From Patescibacteria group bacterium (GTDB taxonomy: Bacteria > Patescibacteriota > Patescibacteriia > UBA9934): a stretch of 64,000 nucleotides of DNA. The stretch lies in contig JBAYHK010000003.1 in the NCBI GenBank assembly GCA_041666145.1, positions 6,277-70,276 on the forward strand, given 5' to 3'. Numbering within the stretch: position 1 is the first letter of the stretch; each line of letters opens with the position of its first letter. Below are positions 14,172 through 41,244 of the stretch, in pieces. The notes beneath the pieces were generated by a model. The model was given only the letters and a program-made list of their open reading frames with translations, ran no database searches and was not told where the DNA came from. The position numbers and the translations under genes were made by a program.

Positions 14172-16052
14172 ATGTTGTCTACAAACGAAATTCGACAAAA
14201 GTATTTTGATTTTTTTTCGAGACATGGGCATATAGTCGTTCCTTCATCTTCGCTCGTACCAGTGAATGATCCAACGACATTGTTTACCGGATCTGGAATG
14301 CAACCGATGATCTCATATTTGCTTGGAGCAACGCATCCTGTAGGAACGCGCATTGTAGATAGTCAAAAGTGTTTTAGAACTGGAGATATTGAAGAGGTCG
14401 GTGACAATCGTCACACAACATTTTTTGAAATGTTAGGAAATTGGAGTCTTGGAGACTATTTTAAGAAAGAGCAGATACCGTGGATGTATGAGTTTTTAAC
14501 AAAAGAGATTGGGCTTGACCCAAAGAATTTGTATGTGACTGTTTTTCGGGGGAGTCCAGAGATTGGGGTTGAGAGAGATGATGAGGCAATTGCGCTTTGG
14601 ACAAAATGTTTTGCAGAGGCGGGAATCGACGCGACGCTTGTAGAGAATTCGGAAGAAGTTGGAATGCAAGATGGTCGCATTTTTTCGTATCCAGAAAAGA
14701 AGAATTGGTGGAGTCGTGCTGGCATACCTTCGAATATGCCAGTTGGAGAACCTGGTGGACCAGATACGGAGATGTTTTACGATTTTGGTATTGAACAAGG
14801 GTTGCATAAAGCGTCGATTTGGAAAGACCTTCCTTGTCATGTGAATTGTGATTGTGGCCGGTTTGTGGAGATTGGAAATAATGTATTTATGCAGTATGTG
14901 AAAACTGCAGATGGATTTGCGGAATTGCCACAAAGGAACGTTGATTTTGGGGGAGGCTTGGAACGGATTGCTTCTGCAGTAAATAACAATCCAGACATGT
15001 TCCTTATTGATGCATTTACTCCGGCTCGATTAGCGTTGGAGTCTGCAACGGGGGTTCGCTATGGATCGTCAGCTGAGATGACGTTTGCTTTTAGAGTTAT
15101 TCTTGACCATATTCGTGCTGCAACATTTCTTATTGGCGATGGTGTGCTACCGGGAAATAAAGATCAAGGATATTTCGTGCGCAGATTGATTCGTCGTGCT
15201 GTGCGGTTTGCGAGAAAGCTAGGTGTTGCAAATGCGCTTGTTCGAACTGTCGCAGAAACCTACATTGATATGTATTCAAGTGCATATTCAAATCTTGCAG
15301 AGAAGCGAGATCAGATTTTGGGCGCAATAGAAGGTGAAGAGGCGAAATTCGCGAAGACGATCGAGCAAGGACTTCGAGAGTTGAAAAAGATTGTAGATAT
15401 TGGAAACGGTGTTACGGGAACAGATGCGTTTAATCTTTATCAGTCGTATGGATTCCCTTTGGAATTGACCGCTGAAGAATTGCAGCAGTCGCATGGGATT
15501 ATTATAGATAGTGAACAGTTTCGTTTAGAGTTTAAAAAGCATCAGGATTTGTCGCGTGCTGGGAGCGAGCAGAAGTTTGCTGGAGGGCTCGCGGACCATT
15601 CTGTTGAAACAACAAAGCTTCATACGGCAACACATCTTCTTCATGCCGCACTTCGAAAAGTACTTGGTGATCATGTTGCCCAAAAGGGAAGCAATATAAC
15701 TGCAGAACGATTGCGCTTTGATTTTTGTCATGGGGAAAAGATGACAGCAGAGCAGATTGAAGAAGTGGAACGAATTGTGAATGAACAGATTAGGAAAGAT
15801 CTTCCAGTTACATTTGACATGTTGACTGTTGATGAGGCAAAGGTGCGTGGATCGATAGGATTGTTTGAAGATAAGTATGCGAAGATTGGCGATAAGATCA
15901 AGATGTATTCTGTTGGTGATTTTAGTAAGGAGATTTGTGGGGGTCCGCATGTTGAGCACACAGGGGAGTTGGGCGCAATCACGATTGTTAAGGAGGAGGC
16001 AGTTTCCGCAGGAGTTCGTAGAATAAAGGCGATTTTGAGAAATAGAGAATAG
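14172..16052 (+). CDS. alaS: alanine--tRNA ligase, minimal form (catalytic, tRNA-recognition and editing domains; no C-Ala domain)
   Basis: It has the AlaRS motifs FTGSGMQPM and QKCFRTGDIEEVG ... RHTTFFEMLGNWSLGDYFK. The editing-domain zinc motif (HTATHLLHAAL ... CGGPHVEHTGE) is present near the C-terminus. The ORF-track N-terminal extension is Cys-rich junk that overlaps the permease. The ATG at 14172 gives the canonical N-terminus MLSTNEIRQKY. At 626 aa it is roughly 250 aa shorter than E. coli AlaRS. Confidence 0.85.
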   Translation: MLSTNEIRQKYFDFFSRHGHIVVPSSSLVPVNDPTTLFTGSGMQPMISYLLGATHPVGTRIVDSQKCFRTGDIEEVGDNRHTTFFEMLGNWSLGDYFKKEQIPWMYEFLTKEIGLDPKNLYVTVFRGSPEIGVERDDEAIALWTKCFAEAGIDATLVENSEEVGMQDGRIFSYPEKKNWWSRAGIPSNMPVGEPGGPDTEMFYDFGIEQGLHKASIWKDLPCHVNCDCGRFVEIGNNVFMQYVKTADGFAELPQRNVDFGGGLERIASAVNNNPDMFLIDAFTPARLALESATGVRYGSSAEMTFAFRVILDHIRAATFLIGDGVLPGNKDQGYFVRRLIRRAVRFARKLGVANALVRTVAETYIDMYSSAYSNLAEKRDQILGAIEGEEAKFAKTIEQGLRELKKIVDIGNGVTGTDAFNLYQSYGFPLELTAEELQQSHGIIIDSEQFRLEFKKHQDLSRAGSEQKFAGGLADHSVETTKLHTATHLLHAALRKVLGDHVAQKGSNITAERLRFDFCHGEKMTAEQIEEVERIVNEQIRKDLPVTFDMLTVDEAKVRGSIGLFEDKYAKIGDKIKMYSVGDFSKEICGGPHVEHTGELGAITIVKEEAVSAGVRRIKAILRNRE

Positions 16053-16059
16053 AAAACAA

Positions 16060-16102
16060 TCGGCCGACCGTCTGAGGAAGACGGTCGGCCAGTTCGTTTT
16101 TG
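16060..16102 (+). terminator. rho-independent terminator after alaS
   Basis: GGCCGACCGTC-TGAGGAA-GACGGTCGGCC: a perfect 11-bp stem, followed by AGTTCGTTTTT. Confidence 0.8.
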
Positions 16103-16530
16103 GAAAGCTAGCACGTTGCTAGCGATTTCCCGTGCTTCTGGATTCCTCTGTTCGTGGCGCTTTGCTCGACACGGCTTTCTAACGGGGGACGTTGCTGTCT
16201 GTTCTGCACATTGCCGTAACTCGGCCTCCGCAGATCACAGTTTTGAATTCAGGAATGTCGTCCCCAAGAGGGAGCCAGCGAGAACGGTGTTTGCGGCGAG
16301 GAGCCGCGGGTCGGGAAGCGGGGGTACTGCTGTTGCGATCCTGGGAGGATTCGCCAGATTCTCGCACGAGGAATCGTGCGCCCGCTTGTCGGGAGGCTTT
16401 GCGTGACATTGATGGAGAACTCCAAATTGGAGTAACGGAATATACCGCCCTTCGTCTCGTCGTGATTCGACGAAACGTTGGGAGATTAGCATATTTAAGA
16501 CAAAAAAGCAATTTTGTATATTAATGTGGG
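16103..16530. ncRNA. GC-rich (roughly 58-60%) highly structured non-coding island; candidate structural RNA of unresolved identity
   Basis: It is a sharp GC spike between a terminator and the infA leader. It carries overlapping ORFs in four frames on both strands, and none has a recognisable protein motif. It has many local hairpins (GCTAGC-ACGTT-GCTAGC; CGCACG-AGGAAT-CGTGCG; CGTCG-TGATT-CGACG) and a long-range GGGGGACG ... CGTCCCC closure. I found no RNase P P4 motif, no SRP domain IV motif, and no tmRNA T-arm/CCA, so the strand and identity stay open. Confidence 0.3.
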
Positions 16531-16633
16531 GGTACTTTCTTGACAGGCATTGTGCATTTGTTACACTTTCGTCGCTTTACTCAGCGGTTCGTGCGCGTTT
16601 GCGCGAGCAGATGTGGTACGATCATCGCAAGTT

Positions 16634-16849
16634 ATGGCGGAAAAAGACTTTATTGAAATGCGCGGTGAGATTCTTGAAAGTCTGCCTTCGGGTAGCTTCC
16701 GAGTGAAACTCGAAAACGACCGCGAAGTCATTGGTCATTTGGCTGGGAAGTTGCGAAAAAATCGCATCCGTGTCCTGCCAGGCGATGACGTCAAAGTGGA
16801 GATCAGCCCGTATGATCTCACAAAGGCACGAATCACGTTCCGGTTTTAG
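16634..16849 (+). CDS. infA: translation initiation factor IF-1
   Basis: The 71-aa protein [71 protein letters not shown] is near-identical in pattern to bacterial IF-1. The ORF-track N-terminal extension has no IF-1 homology, so I rejected it. Confidence 0.9.
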
Positions 16850-25658: not shown

Positions 25659-27241
25659 TGTCAACAATAAAACAGTGGTTTGATCGCAGCACACTGTATG
25701 GACTTCTCAGTCTTCTTATTGTTCACGGTATTGCCTGGATAACCCAACACACAATCTGGAGCGCGATTCCTTTTGCAATCCTCATTATTGGAACCTTCTT
25801 TGTTACAAAACGATCGCTAGTCTGGGGATTTGCTCTTGTCATGCTAGAGATCATCATTGGTGGTCATGGACATTTGATCGACGTCTCACTTGGCGGAGCA
25901 ACGATTGGTTTGCGACTTGGGATGTTCTGCGCTGTTATGCTCGGCGTGGCGTATCACATTTTCTTCAAGAAAGTTCGACCAACGTTTGTGTTTGAACGTG
26001 ACATGCCAATCATCGCGATTCTTATTGCTGTCATTATCGGCTTCATCATCGGCATATTCCGTAATCCGTTCGGTGACGCATTCGACGACGCAAACGCTTT
26101 TGTTACTCTCGGCTATCTTCTTCCAGTCGCCATGATTGTTTGGACCAACGAAGCGAAAAGAATTATTCTTTGGACATTTGCACTTGGCGCAACTTGGATA
26201 GCCATTTCTTCCGTTGCCCTTCTTTATCTCTTCTCTCATCTTTCCGTTGACGGCATTTGGGCGCTTTATCATTTTGTTCGCGATGCACGACTAGCAGAAG
26301 TCACACTTCTTTCTGGGCCAGCATGGCTCGTGGCAATGCTTCCAAATGGCCCATGGTTCTTTCGTGTATTCGAACCCGCACAAGCGTTCGTAATGTTTTT
26401 CACTTTAGTGCTTTGTAGCATGATGTGTTTTATAACAAAAACATGGAGGTCTCGAGTAATGATTGCAATTCCGCTTGTGCTCATGTTCGCTGTCGACATC
26501 AGCAGCCAATCTCGAAGTTTCTGGATCGGTTTGTTTGTTGGTGGATTGGCACTTTCGATGGTGGTGCTTTATGAACGAATTTCTTTCCGCGAAATTCTTC
26601 GAATGAAAATTGTCGGATCGACTGCGTCGCTTATTGCGCTACTTGCGATCTGGGTTGCGGTAGTGATTCCAATTCCACAACGACCAGACTTAACAAACAC
26701 AAAATATTATCGTGGCCAAGATGACGACACTCGCGAGCTTGCTGTTTCAAGCCGCTGGAATTTGCTTGGGCCAATGATGGATCAAATCGAACAGTCGCCA
26801 GTATGGGGAAGTGGATTCGGAACGTCGGTAACATTCATTTCAGACGATCCTCGACTTCGCGAAATAAATCCAAATGGCGAATGGACAACGTATCGTTTCG
26901 AATGGGGATTCCACGATATCTGGATCAAAATGGGCATTCCTGGCTTGCTCGCCTTCGGTTGGTTCTTCTTCACAATTCTCAAGGCAACTATTCGATCGAT
27001 TCGAGAAAAAGAAGAGACTCGCTGGCTTACCGTTTCTCTTTGCGCCGGCATCATCGCCCTCTTTGCCTCTCACGCCTTCTCCCCCTATCTCAATCACCCA
27101 ATAGGTCTAGGCTTCATGATCATGGTTCTCCCATTCTTCTCCTGGCAAAAGAAACCAATCCCCAGCATGGCCAACGTTCTCCACGTCGCCGAAAAAGTCG
27201 CTCTTCCTCCCGTACGAAAAGCCGTGACGGTTCGAGAATAG
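25655..27241 (+). CDS. O-antigen ligase/polymerase-like membrane protein (Wzy_C/WaaL family)
   Basis: It has about 12 TMs and a large periplasmic loop (WNLLGPMMDQIEQSPVWGSGFG ... HDIWIKMGIPGLLAF). That is typical of the O-antigen ligase domain. Confidence 0.65.
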   Translation: MMSTIKQWFDRSTLYGLLSLLIVHGIAWITQHTIWSAIPFAILIIGTFFVTKRSLVWGFALVMLEIIIGGHGHLIDVSLGGATIGLRLGMFCAVMLGVAYHIFFKKVRPTFVFERDMPIIAILIAVIIGFIIGIFRNPFGDAFDDANAFVTLGYLLPVAMIVWTNEAKRIILWTFALGATWIAISSVALLYLFSHLSVDGIWALYHFVRDARLAEVTLLSGPAWLVAMLPNGPWFFRVFEPAQAFVMFFTLVLCSMMCFITKTWRSRVMIAIPLVLMFAVDISSQSRSFWIGLFVGGLALSMVVLYERISFREILRMKIVGSTASLIALLAIWVAVVIPIPQRPDLTNTKYYRGQDDDTRELAVSSRWNLLGPMMDQIEQSPVWGSGFGTSVTFISDDPRLREINPNGEWTTYRFEWGFHDIWIKMGIPGLLAFGWFFFTILKATIRSIREKEETRWLTVSLCAGIIALFASHAFSPYLNHPIGLGFMIMVLPFFSWQKKPIPSMANVLHVAEKVALPPVRKAVTVRE

Positions 27242-27268
27242 GGAACATCATCATCAATTTCCCAAAAC

Positions 27269-27297
27269 AAAAGCGCATCCACTGGCGATGCGCTTTT
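27269..27297 (+). terminator. rho-independent terminator after the polysaccharide cluster
   Basis: AAAAGCGCATC-CACTGG-CGATGCGCTTTTG: a 9-bp stem plus a T-run. Confidence 0.75.
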
Positions 27298-27342
27298 GCA
27301 GACAGAACGTCTGAGCGAATCGCGCTTGGATGCGCGGCGTTT

Positions 27343-27924
27343 CTAGTTGCGCCTTCCGAATACGGCGTCCCACAGTCGAGAACCCATCAAGGGATGAAGG
27401 CAGAACCGTTTTGGCGTTAGGACTTCTTCTGGAGGAGGATCCGATACGGTTGGCGGAGGCGGTAGCTCTCCTTGCTCCCGCTGTTCTGGTCGAATGTCTT
27501 CCTCGTCTTTTATGGCGTCGAGAGGGCTTGGCCCCCACAACTGCATGAAGTTGATCGAGACATGTTCGCTACCGTCTTCAACTTGGATGAGGTGGCACTC
27601 GAATCCGCGAAGTCCGAACGCGTAGACCATTTTGCTCGCATCACGAATTCGGAGGACCGTGAACCGTTGAAGATTTCTCGGCGGAGATGCGAGACGCGAA
27701 CCAGAGCGCTGGTCGCTGTAGTGAAGCTCTGCATTTCCGTTTTTTCCATCATCAAAGAAGATGCTCATGATTTTGGCTTGTTCTTCTTGAGAAAGGTCCC
27801 AAATTTCTCCTAGGTGAAAAAGGAGGTAGCCTGGGACTTTGGATTTGAAGGTTTCTTTGACCAGGTTCTCTTTCTCTGGGATCGATACTTTGAAACGGTA
27901 GTCGAACCTTTGCGGTGGCATCAT
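27343..27924 (-). CDS. hypothetical protein with a Pro-rich C-terminus
   Basis: A good SD (AGGAGAAAC) lies before the ATG at 27924. I see no recognisable motif. The last 60 aa are encoded by a local GC-rich patch (PPPPTVSDPPPEEV...). Confidence 0.4.
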   Translation of the reverse strand: MMPPQRFDYRFKVSIPEKENLVKETFKSKVPGYLLFHLGEIWDLSQEEQAKIMSIFFDDGKNGNAELHYSDQRSGSRLASPPRNLQRFTVLRIRDASKMVYAFGLRGFECHLIQVEDGSEHVSINFMQLWGPSPLDAIKDEEDIRPEQREQGELPPPPTVSDPPPEEVLTPKRFCLHPLMGSRLWDAVFGRRN

Positions 27925-39472: not shown

Positions 39473-40687
39473 ATGGAGGGAAGGGGAGTGCGAAGGTTTT
39501 CCGCGATAATTCTAGGCGTAGTTGTATTTTTAGGATTGCATTCTTCTGTTTTCGCCTCGAACGAAGTTGAACAACTTCAGCAGACAATTACAGAAAAAAA
39601 GGCGGCAATTGGCGTGCTTGATGCGCAGCTGGAACAATATCGAATAAAAATTCGGGAGCTTTCTGGAAAAAGCATTTCTTTGCAAAATGATGTTGCATTA
39701 CTTGAAAATGAGATTGCGATGTCTGAACTTGACATCGCAGCAACTCAAAATTCGCTCGATCAAGAAACTCTTGAGCTTCGCATAATTGATGGACAGATTC
39801 GTGACATTGAACGTGAGTTAGCGGATCGACGTGCGATGCTGTCAGATATTTTGTTTGCAGTGAATAAATCAGATTCTCAAGGAATTTTAGATGTTGTTCT
39901 GAACATCGGTTCCATTAATGACGTATTTGATGCAGCGCAACAATTGACGAGCGTAAACAGCACCATGAAGACAGCACTAGAGGCCACGAAGCTTACAAGA
40001 CAAGACCTTGCAGATCGACAGATAAATCATGAAGAAAAGAAAATAAGTCTTTTGGAGTCGCAGACTGATCTTGAAAAGAAGTCTCAGACATTGTCAATGC
40101 AAAAAAACGCAAAAGAGATCTTAATGCAAGCAACTTCAGATTCAGAAAATCAGTATCGAACGCTCATGAGCGAGATTCGATCTGAGCAACAGGCTATCGC
40201 GAACGAAGTTGTTTCTTTGCAAGACAGTATTCAGAGCAAACTTCAGGGTATTGATGGTGGTATTGAAGGACTAGAAACAACGATTTCATGGCCCATCCAT
40301 GGAACGATAACGGCATTATTTCACGACCCTACGTATCCCTTCCGTCACTTATTTGAACATTCAGGTCTTGATATTGCTGTTCCACAAGGAACCGCCATAG
40401 AATCTGCCGCGCCAGGATTTGTCGCTAGAGTTTATAAAGGACAAGATTACGGATATTACGTTTTAATAATCCATGCGAATGGACTGGCGACTTTGTATGC
40501 GCATATGTCACGGATTGACGTTGAGCTAGACCAATACGTAGGGCGTGGCCAAGTCATTGGATTATCTGGCGGAAAACCAGGTACTGTTGGAGCTGGATTT
40601 TCAACCGGGCCTCATACGCACTTCGAAGTCCGGCTAAATGGCATTCCGGTAAATCCGCTTGCTTATCTTGATATCAATCAGCTTTAG
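39473..40687 (+). CDS. M23-family metallopeptidase with an N-terminal coiled-coil (EnvC/LytM-like)
   Basis: It has a signal/TM anchor and about 230 aa of heptad-rich coiled coil. The M23 catalytic motifs follow (HSGLDIAVPQGT ... YAHMSRI ... GPHTHFEV). Confidence 0.8.
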   Translation: MEGRGVRRFSAIILGVVVFLGLHSSVFASNEVEQLQQTITEKKAAIGVLDAQLEQYRIKIRELSGKSISLQNDVALLENEIAMSELDIAATQNSLDQETLELRIIDGQIRDIERELADRRAMLSDILFAVNKSDSQGILDVVLNIGSINDVFDAAQQLTSVNSTMKTALEATKLTRQDLADRQINHEEKKISLLESQTDLEKKSQTLSMQKNAKEILMQATSDSENQYRTLMSEIRSEQQAIANEVVSLQDSIQSKLQGIDGGIEGLETTISWPIHGTITALFHDPTYPFRHLFEHSGLDIAVPQGTAIESAAPGFVARVYKGQDYGYYVLIIHANGLATLYAHMSRIDVELDQYVGRGQVIGLSGGKPGTVGAGFSTGPHTHFEVRLNGIPVNPLAYLDINQL

Positions 40688-40718
40688 TTAGATACTCAAA
40701 TCCTTGTATTGCATCAGA

Positions 40719-40752
40719 TTAAAATAGAGCCACTGAGGTAGCTCTATTTTAA
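40719..40752 (+). terminator. rho-independent terminator after the M23 peptidase
   Basis: AAAATAGAGC-CACTGAGGTA-GCTCTATTTTAAT: a 10-bp stem with AT-rich flanks. Confidence 0.6.
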
Positions 40753-41244
40753 TACAGCGCGTTTAAATGCGTCACACGAAACGTATCTTGAATAAATAAG
40801 AGCAAAGCGCATTCGACTCTATTTGATGAAAGAATTTGCTATCGAATTTTATTCTTAATTGGAGAGGTTGCTTAAATTAGAAATAAAGACAATCGAGAAT
40901 AGAGGCATGCAGAGTAAAAGATTTGGATGGTTTTTGCGGCTTCATAAAACTTCGTTCAAGATGTTTTATCTATAGGTATACATCACTAGCTTCGTAAATG
41001 ATATATTGTACGACACATTGCATCGAACTCGGAAAACAGGAAAAGAAGAGAGAAATTAATTTCTTTTATTCCCCTCTCCTCTTTATAGTCCGAAATACTT
41101 CTGAGCTAAAAACTTCGTTTCATTTTTTACTCATCATGTATTTGAAAAATTACCGAGAACCTTCCGTTCTCTAGTCCAAATCTCTAGTATCCATAATCAC
41201 CTGCTTTATAAAAGAACACGCCCCATCCCCTATCGAATCGAACA

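Follow-up and report, generated by a model that had tools for sequence, protein, structure and literature searches.

A candidate minus-strand small gene with conserved RNA structure in the alaS-infA interval of an Uhrbacteria-like Patescibacteria genome

In a 64,000-nucleotide (nt) stretch of a Patescibacteria genome (contig JBAYHK010000003.1; the whole stretch is called the window below), the interval between alaS and infA holds a GC-rich island packed with hairpins. Comparison with related genomes shows that this island has a conserved architecture, that its stems covary and that, in the window's own clade, substitutions preserve the structure; it also points to a minus-strand polarity of the fold. 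We propose that the island holds a compact gene, restricted to this lineage and read from the minus strand. Its RNA would be structured, would serve as the mRNA of a small, basic protein that evolves fast and is probably disordered, and might be bifunctional; translation would be gated by a hairpin holding the Shine-Dalgarno (SD) sequence together with a three-way junction. This is the most likely of the readings that we considered, at about even odds: transcription, translation of the open reading frame (ORF) of the window, gating and any cellular role are what we infer from the features collected in Table 1.

According to this proposal, transcription would proceed from an extended -10 promoter (16511-16483) located back-to-back with that of infA. 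The RNA would run from about 16476 to about 16055, roughly 420 nt, and would end at a hairpin that also terminates the convergent alaS transcript. From 5' to 3', it would carry the leader hairpins P1 and P2, the SD-holding hairpin P3, the three-way junction within the first ~30 codons and further hairpins, the ORF having 76 codons. Initiation would then depend on the opening of P3 and of the junction lying just downstream of the start codon.

Table 1. Features of the minus-strand unit between alaS and infA and of its neighbours (positions in the window)
Feature	Positions	Strand	Description
Promoter-like site	16483-16511	-	-35 TTGCTT (16511-16506), 14-nt spacer, extended -10 TGC-TAATCT (16491-16483)
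Leader hairpin P1	16476-16454	-	GUUUCGUCG-AAUCA-CGACGAGAC
Leader hairpin P2	16448-16435	-	GCGG-UAUAUU-CCGU
Hairpin P3	16433-16419	-	ACUCC-AAUUU-GGAGU; 3' arm is the SD-like GGAG (16423-16420), 10 nt upstream of ATG
76-codon ORF and stop	16179-16409	-	MSRKASRQAGARFLVRESGESSQDRNSSTPASRPAAPRRKHRSRWLPLGDDIPEFKTVICGGRVTAMCRTDSNVPR*; ATG at 16409, TAG at 16181-16179
Three-way junction	16388-16315	-	codons ~8-32; outer stem AAGCGGG/CCCGCUU
Junction hairpin H1	within 16388-16315	-	CGCACGA-UUCC-UCGUGCG
Junction hairpin H2	within 16388-16315	-	GCGAAUCC-UCCCA-GGAUCGC
Hairpin cluster	16184-16265	-	GGGGACG...CGUCCCC closure; inner stems CUGCGG.../...GCAG and GCCG-AGUUA-CGGC; in the minus-strand minimum-free-energy fold
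3' hairpin	16102-16130	-	GGAAA-UC-GCUAGC-AACGU-GCUAGC-UUUCC, just upstream of the terminator
Terminator hairpin	16051-16090	-	GGCCGACCGUCU-UCCUC-AGACGGUCGGCC (16090-16062), then AUUGUUUUCU (16060-16051)
infA promoter (conserved)	16540-16567	+	TTGACA-N16-TACACT, TG before the -10; downstream of the island
alaS	14172-16052	+	626 residues; stop codon 16050-16052
infA	16634-16849	+	followed by rpmJ, rpsM, rpsK, rpsD, rpoA, rplQ

The genome of the window belongs to the Patescibacteria (Candidate Phyla Radiation) and is close to Candidatus Uhrbacteria, its best AlaS matches in the genome collection being locus L001 (75% identical) and Uhrbacteria metagenome-assembled genomes (63%). The order alaS then infA is conserved in this group, infA being found no more than 6 kb downstream of alaS in 29 of 80 genome loci. 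Relatives were sampled as contigs encoding an identical InfA and as nine AlaS relatives at 77-91% identity, which gave a graded series of alaS-infA spacers. The slot is variable among them. The spacers of L084 and L101 are only 89-97 nt long and correspond to the infA promoter and 5' untranslated region (UTR), the island being absent. The slot is occupied by an ORF of 434 residues in L083 and by an HD-domain gene and a sigma-70 gene in L001. All remaining loci carry a GC-rich insert of 430-700 nt that lies, in every case, about 10 GC points above the host locus. These inserts can be sorted into a window type (group A: the window, L098, L090, L087, L089, L104), a sister type (group B: L082/L088, L085/L096, L086, L106, L107) and a third type (group C: L102, L103, L105). 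L098 is 86% identical to the window across the whole alaS-infA spacer. Between groups A and B, the inserts are alignable over their two ends and over a block in the middle. The minus-strand unit was recognized in 14 related loci from Uhrbacteria-like Patescibacteria; its upstream end is covered in 12 of them and its ORF region in 13. A metagenome pattern scan anchored on both promoters returned four loci only, all duplicates of L089 and L085.

The composition and foldability that had drawn attention to the island in the original prediction were confirmed. GC content is 0.41-0.45 in alaS, reaches 0.55-0.605 over 16100-16499 and has come down to 0.43 by 16400-16599; the bin 16001-16400 (0.555, against about 0.44) is the richest of all 160 bins of 400 nt in the 64-kb window. 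The folding energies of both strands (-142.4 kcal/mol, z -4.52, for the minus strand; -174.3 kcal/mol, z -3.26, for the plus strand) were equalled by none of 100 dinucleotide shuffles in either case. A long-range closure had also been pointed out and is present, GGGGGACG (16184-16191) and CGTCCCC (16259-16265) enclosing 67 nt. The ORFs that overlap one another on both strands exist as described, and they have no match in Pfam, NCBIfam, PHROGs or PADLOC. The absence of familiar RNAs such as RNase P, signal recognition particle (SRP) RNA and transfer-messenger RNA (tmRNA) holds as well: a search of Rfam 15 (RNase P, tmRNA, SRP, 6S, riboswitches, large ornate RNAs and others) gave no match inside the island at gathering score or at E<=10, the sole weak matches at E<=10 falling over the terminator hairpin, and ARAGORN detected no tRNA or tmRNA in the island. 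No Rfam match was obtained at E<=1 for the loci of nine relatives, nor did a literature search on structured RNAs in intergenic regions of Patescibacteria return any paper.

The two ends of the unit are conserved features. Upstream, the motif TTGnnn-N14-TGn-TAnnnT is found at the same position in all 12 related units that cover this end, with differing bases in the spacer, and it stands back-to-back with the infA promoter. Read from its sequence, the segment 16483-16511 is a promoter-like site that would serve the minus-strand unit, and the transcript probably starts near 16476. Downstream, every insert ends in a hairpin of 12-13 bp with the pattern GGCCG…(loop UCCCC)…CGGCC. This terminator is shared by the minus-strand unit and the convergent alaS, and a terminator scan calls it on both strands; a separate terminator-like hairpin for alaS is present in five relatives. 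Five sequences retain all 13 pairs of the stem, and in 10 of these pairs both sides have changed. In L089, L103 and L105, the stem contains U·G wobbles that are possible only on the minus strand. The A/T run is likewise on the side of that strand. A position-conserved promoter-like site at one end and a terminator at the other are what is expected of an independent minus-strand transcription unit.

Structure is also conserved in the leader. In an alignment of eight sequences, 98% of the cells of P1 and P2 are paired, against 90.2% in shuffles, and six of the 13 pairs have changed on both sides; none of 500 shuffles matches either value. Wobble pairs (G·U or U·G) account for eleven cells of the minus strand, all of which would become A·C mismatches if the plus strand were the one folding. 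The SD-holding hairpin P3 has an equivalent in most relatives, and its two arms covary (ACUCC/GGAGU, CUCAU/AUGAG, GCUCU/GGAGU), as read from the sequences by eye without a formal count.

The three-way junction is located inside the reading frame. Its segments are nearly equal in length in groups A and B, so that hardly any gaps are needed to align them. In an alignment of 10 sequences, pairs are formed in 88.5% of the cells, compared with 77.3% in shuffles, and 12 of the 22 pairs have changed on both sides, compared with 6.0±1.4; in neither respect did any of 500 shuffles reach the observed value. When the 3' partners are slid by one to three columns, pairing drops to 22-39%. Compensatory changes beyond those of both the shuffled and the slid controls are the mark of a structured RNA under selection. 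Many of these changes are non-synonymous. At the corresponding codons of H2, the window has E/D, L098 has G/G, L089 has G/A and L082 has V/T; what is preserved there is the RNA pairing, not the amino acid. A covariance model built on the junction scores 69.3 bits on the minus strand of the window and 47-73 bits at the seed loci, each hit being on the strand that carries the unit. Run on the window and 98 loci, this model recovered the seed loci only, with no second copy and no distant relatives.

In L098, about 4 bp of the outer stem of the closure are left according to the pairwise alignment, and the inner CUGCGG/CCGCAG stem is improved. At the place of the 3' hairpin, directly before the terminator, most related units have a hairpin of different sequence. 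A whole-unit MAFFT alignment analyzed with RNAalifold was reliable only for the leader, H1 and the terminator, the middle part of the unit not being alignable across clades.

Comparison of the window with L098 allows the type of selection to be examined in the window's clade. Per site, the island diverges by 0.165 within the ORF and by 0.169 in the remainder. Synonymous divergence between the same two genomes amounts to 0.31 in rpsM, 0.37 in an ftsX-like gene, 0.45 in rpsK and 0.48 in alaS; infA (0.18) is the only gene with a value as low as that of the island. The island has therefore changed two to three times more slowly than most neighbouring synonymous sites. The substitutions were then mapped on the minimum-free-energy fold of the window, with 2000 permutations. 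On the minus strand, 11 single changes break a pair whereas 20.8±2.8 are expected (no permutation as low), and four double changes keep a pair, against 1.9 expected. Slow change and the depletion of pair-breaking substitutions together indicate that the element is constrained, that the constraint bears on minus-strand RNA pairing, and that it is spread evenly over the three codon positions. In the window's lineage, detectable selection thus acts on RNA pairing and not on codons.

The strand deserves particular attention, as the original prediction implicitly placed the structure on the strand of alaS and infA. The RNA could then either prolong the alaS transcript as a structured 3' tail or act as an upstream element of the infA operon, a view that would agree with the lower folding energy of the plus strand and with the mismatched cells of the junction, of which more would pair as G·U on that strand. 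We nevertheless consider it very improbable. The terminator hairpin separates alaS from the island, the conserved infA promoter is located downstream of the island and is intact in relatives without it, and no promoter-like site was found by scanning before the island on the plus strand. Moreover, P1 and the terminator contain G·U pairs that form on the minus strand only, and the plus-strand fold is not preserved by the substitutions, 19 of which break a pair where 20.8 are expected. Leader, terminator and substitution test thus all point to the minus strand, whereas the junction, taken by itself, leans the other way.

Whether the conserved frame is translated was addressed first in the sister lineages. 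An ORF of 76-130 codons is found at a homologous start and in a homologous frame in all 13 related units where this region is covered. A conserved SD sequence, a start codon and a homologous open frame are what a protein-coding gene should display. In group B, the ratio of non-synonymous to synonymous divergence (dN/dS) of this ORF is 0.23-0.50 among close pairs. It is 0.26-0.38, at dS values of 0.64-0.94, in comparisons with P0121 and P0122, two proteins that a protein search brought up and whose genes occupy the corresponding locus of L106 and L107. In L106, the shadow frame on the antisense strand is interrupted. The group B protein has a conserved core (…NCSPGF..PGDH..VLVH.R.PH.V..VPRT.AEYR…RGGKGRR). 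The homologous ORF is therefore truly protein-coding in the sister clade. In addition, eight relatives (L102, L082, L085, L086, L087, L103, L105, L089) show a coding-type periodicity of GC content at third codon positions (GC3; p from 4e-8 to 0.05), with GC3 of 0.75-0.90 against about 0.6 at the first two positions, the GC3 of host genes being 0.36-0.68. The protein family is very small. A search of 5.8 billion proteins yielded two members; HMMER, run exhaustively on 1.84 billion representatives, left three real members including the query, P0123 being the sole addition. A further candidate, P0124, was discarded as spurious: it is a translated tandem repeat of 2495 residues (~23 repeats, satellite-like) that matched the sister-clade protein through a short THPRLPKIVLEV-like stretch. 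The profile of the sister-clade protein has no match in the PDB.

Several observations weigh against extending this conclusion to the window, and more generally against the gene that we propose. The ORF of the window shows no codon signature when compared with L098: the substitutions are distributed 16/10/12 over the codon positions and dN/dS is 0.94, whereas the control genes give 40/27/200 (alaS) and 0/1/9 (infA). No GC3 periodicity is found either (0.62/0.63/0.57 by codon position, p=0.68). The stop codon shifts, the frame having 76 codons in the window and 97 in L098, and an open frame of this length is unsurprising in the T-poor sequence of the window (p=0.09 in shuffles). Six-frame protein comparison between clades gives about equal similarity in the other frames and thereby leaves the coding question undecided, and hhalign of group A against group B is weak (probability 6.8%). 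At the RNA level, the structural alignments comprise 8-10 related sequences and were padded by hand. In the junction, only two cells form G·U on the minus strand; 11 others, mostly at helix ends, are mismatched as A·C or C·A on that strand and would pair as G·U if the plus strand were read. Finally, the hexamers of the promoter-like site of the window are weak (three of six positions each), and for this reason a consensus promoter scan missed the site.

These data raise the possibility that, in the window's lineage, the element is a purely non-coding structured RNA, either a riboregulator or a scaffold, which descends from a small protein gene or shares a chassis with one, the ORF being an untranslated relic kept open by the T-poor composition. 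This differs from the structured mRNA that we propose only in whether the 76-codon frame is translated. The dN/dS close to one and the lack of codon periodicity, in a sequence that nonetheless diverges two to three times less than most neighbouring synonymous sites, speak for this view. So do substitutions that keep the minus-strand structure, the largely non-synonymous compensatory changes of the junction, the non-significant length and unconserved end of the ORF, and the GC excess of about 10 points over the host in every lineage, as is usual in structured RNAs. It should, however, be noted that an SD-like GGAG located 7-10 nt upstream of a conserved ATG or GTG across clades, within a covarying hairpin, is typical of an mRNA. 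Moreover, the frame is open in the window and in 13 of 13 related units, which corresponds to a family-wide p of ~0.01 when the open-frame p-values of the lineages are combined by hand, and coding signatures are clear in relatives. The minus strand is also C-rich and G-poor (C 0.34, G 0.25), which would be unusual for a dedicated structural RNA. On balance, we view the purely non-coding alternative as a serious but minority option.

The element could also be devoid of function, as a decaying pseudogene or a horizontally acquired GC-rich fragment in a hypervariable slot. The varied occupancy of this slot, from the short spacers of L084 and L101 to the unrelated genes of L083 and L001, would fit such a view, as would the lack of codon-level constraint in the window's clade and GC and GC3 values foreign to the host genome. 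This explanation is already disfavoured and looks improbable to us: the island keeps its place and can be aligned in lineages whose AlaS are only 77-91% identical, it diverges slowly, pair-breaking substitutions are depleted and the stems covary. In addition, it has no detectable similarity to the slot genes of L001 or, in any frame, to the sister-clade protein. As for its being a remnant of the L001 HD-domain and sigma-70 genes, tblastn and blastn gave no match in the island. A frameshifted copy of the sister-clade protein was likewise rejected, the best E-value of its hidden Markov model against all six frames of window-type units being 0.4.

Two other candidate roles were rejected on the basis of the locus comparison. 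A housekeeping structural RNA does not agree with the lack of the island in L084 and L101 and with the other genes that take its place in L083 and L001; since close relatives lack it, the element is dispensable. A cis-regulatory leader of the infA operon does not agree with the location of the infA promoter, which lies downstream of the island and remains intact where the island is absent.

Taken together, these results modify the original prediction in several respects. Its extent (16103-16530) was nearly right, the real unit being slightly larger, ~16051-16511, when the promoter-like site and the terminator hairpin are included. The label of structured RNA of unknown class stands insofar as a covarying structure has no Rfam match, and fails for the strand, since the evidence favours folding as the minus strand. 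'Non-coding' agrees with the lack of a codon signature in the window clade and disregards the SD sequence, the ATG and a 76-codon frame homologous to a protein gene of the sister clade. The suggestion of an intron or retroelement remnant, or of a foreign fragment, is not borne out for an island that is syntenic across genera, and missing or replaced in close relatives. Conservation and covariation in related genomes had been proposed as checks; the stems do covary and the island can be aligned across related lineages. A degraded protein gene recoverable by a frameshift-tolerant search had been envisaged as a refutation, and the outcome was negative for the genes tried (the HD-domain and sigma-70 genes of L001 and the sister-clade protein).

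A broader scenario can be tentatively put forward, although we would not favour it at present. A conserved RNA chassis made of the promoter-like site, the leader and SD hairpins, the junction and the terminator would carry a true protein gene in some lineages and would have turned, or be turning, into a structured non-coding or bifunctional RNA in that of the window. The junction might then be a new motif binding a protein or a ligand of the translation apparatus, next to the infA operon. If true, this would be a natural case of transition from coding to structural RNA.

Some observations concern the surroundings of the unit. The infA promoter and its ~65-nt 5' UTR (16540-16633, plus strand) are far more conserved than their surroundings, with three differences from L098 in about 94 nt. 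This UTR contains a hairpin, GTTCGTGCGCG-TTT-GCGCGAGC, in place of which the sister clade has a different hairpin, and it may be a regulatory leader of infA or of the ribosomal-protein operon. Among genomes with identical or nearly identical InfA, the alaS-infA slot is a hotspot of gene turnover (L083:2322-4000, L001:7873-9417, L099:3510-3848). The 434-residue ORF of L083 has no Pfam match, the sigma-70 gene of L001 is on the minus strand, and L099 has yet another ORF. About 400 nt of extra sequence are found in L103 (4850-5270) between the minus-strand unit and infA, with a 76-residue minus-strand open frame ending in a hydrophobic, transmembrane-like C-terminal segment (…WWMLPSVALAIIVVTVLWVAL). 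The AlaS protein of the window (14172-16052, plus strand) is short, with tRNA-synt_2c and tRNA_SAD domains only, and its length of 626 residues is common to all relatives retrieved.

Automatic annotation performs poorly at this locus. The contig of the window is also present in JGI 3300037810 and ENA ERZ27249449. In contigs identical to the window (L091:6064-6869, L092, L081:3602-3859), the minus-strand ORF called automatically in the island (85 residues, window 16235-16492) is in the wrong frame. In gene calls from ENA and Logan on identical contigs, an 86-residue ORF antisense to infA stands in place of infA, and rpmJ is often missed too.

Elsewhere in the window, the second most GC-rich bin (27201-27600, 0.542) has no Rfam match at gathering score. 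It corresponds to the meeting point of a plus-strand membrane-protein gene (end at 27241) and a minus-strand ORF of 193 residues (27343-27924). The cumulative GC skew peaks at about 40000-41200, where it turns from positive to negative, and the bin 40801-41200 has the lowest GC content of the window (0.338). At this turn, either the orientation of genes or the direction of replication could change, as it would at a terminus-like point, for instance.

The small genes and RNAs of the Candidate Phyla Radiation are almost unexplored. The island adds to this group an RNA structure supported by covariation, yet uncatalogued, and an unannotated family of small genes, at a locus that is misannotated automatically, with spurious ORFs in other frames on identical contigs and infA itself missed in some of them. 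The same chassis is under protein-level selection in sister lineages and under RNA-level selection only in the window's lineage, which makes it a tractable case for the interconversion of small ORFs and structured RNAs. Its wider importance is modest, as the element is dispensable and restricted to a narrow clade.

Type I toxin mRNAs (hok, tisB, ldr) encode a small, hydrophobic, membrane-active peptide. Like them, the island would give rise to a long and highly folded mRNA that stands alone, carries a small ORF and has its ribosome-binding site occluded; it is also dispensable and patchy in distribution. Unlike theirs, the product of its ORF is hydrophilic, rich in Arg, Ser and Pro and without a hydrophobic helix; no antisense partner is evident and PADLOC gives no match. 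Assignment to the type I toxin mRNAs was rejected on account of this hydrophilic product. RNA thermometers (ROSE, fourU) and the expression platforms of riboswitches sequester the SD sequence in the leader of an mRNA. Similarly, the GGAG of the island is the 3' arm of a short, conserved and covarying hairpin that precedes the start codon, with more structure around the initiation region. The island differs from these leaders in having no Rfam match and no recognizable aptamer, and in the extension of its structure about 100 nt into the ORF as a three-way junction.

Dual-function RNAs such as SgrS/SgrT, RNAIII/hld and SR1/SR1P are a few hundred nt long and combine a conserved secondary structure with a small ORF. 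Like these, the RNA of the island is apparently transcribed independently, with selection on structure and, in some lineages, on the peptide. Unlike these, it has no sequence or Rfam relationship to them, and its ORF of 76-130 codons fills most of the RNA, so that structure lies inside the coding region. The type of object, a small-ORF RNA with a conserved structure, is familiar, whereas the RNA motif and the protein family are uncatalogued. A further parallel is provided by the units encoding the small proteins of the sister clade (P0121, P0122, P0123 and the ORFs of L082, L085 and L086). The window has no trace, in any frame, of the conserved core of these proteins, which is under purifying selection there. 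It nevertheless shares with these units the locus, the strand, the promoter-like site, the SD sequence and start codon and the terminator, as well as the same three-way junction within the N-terminal codons.

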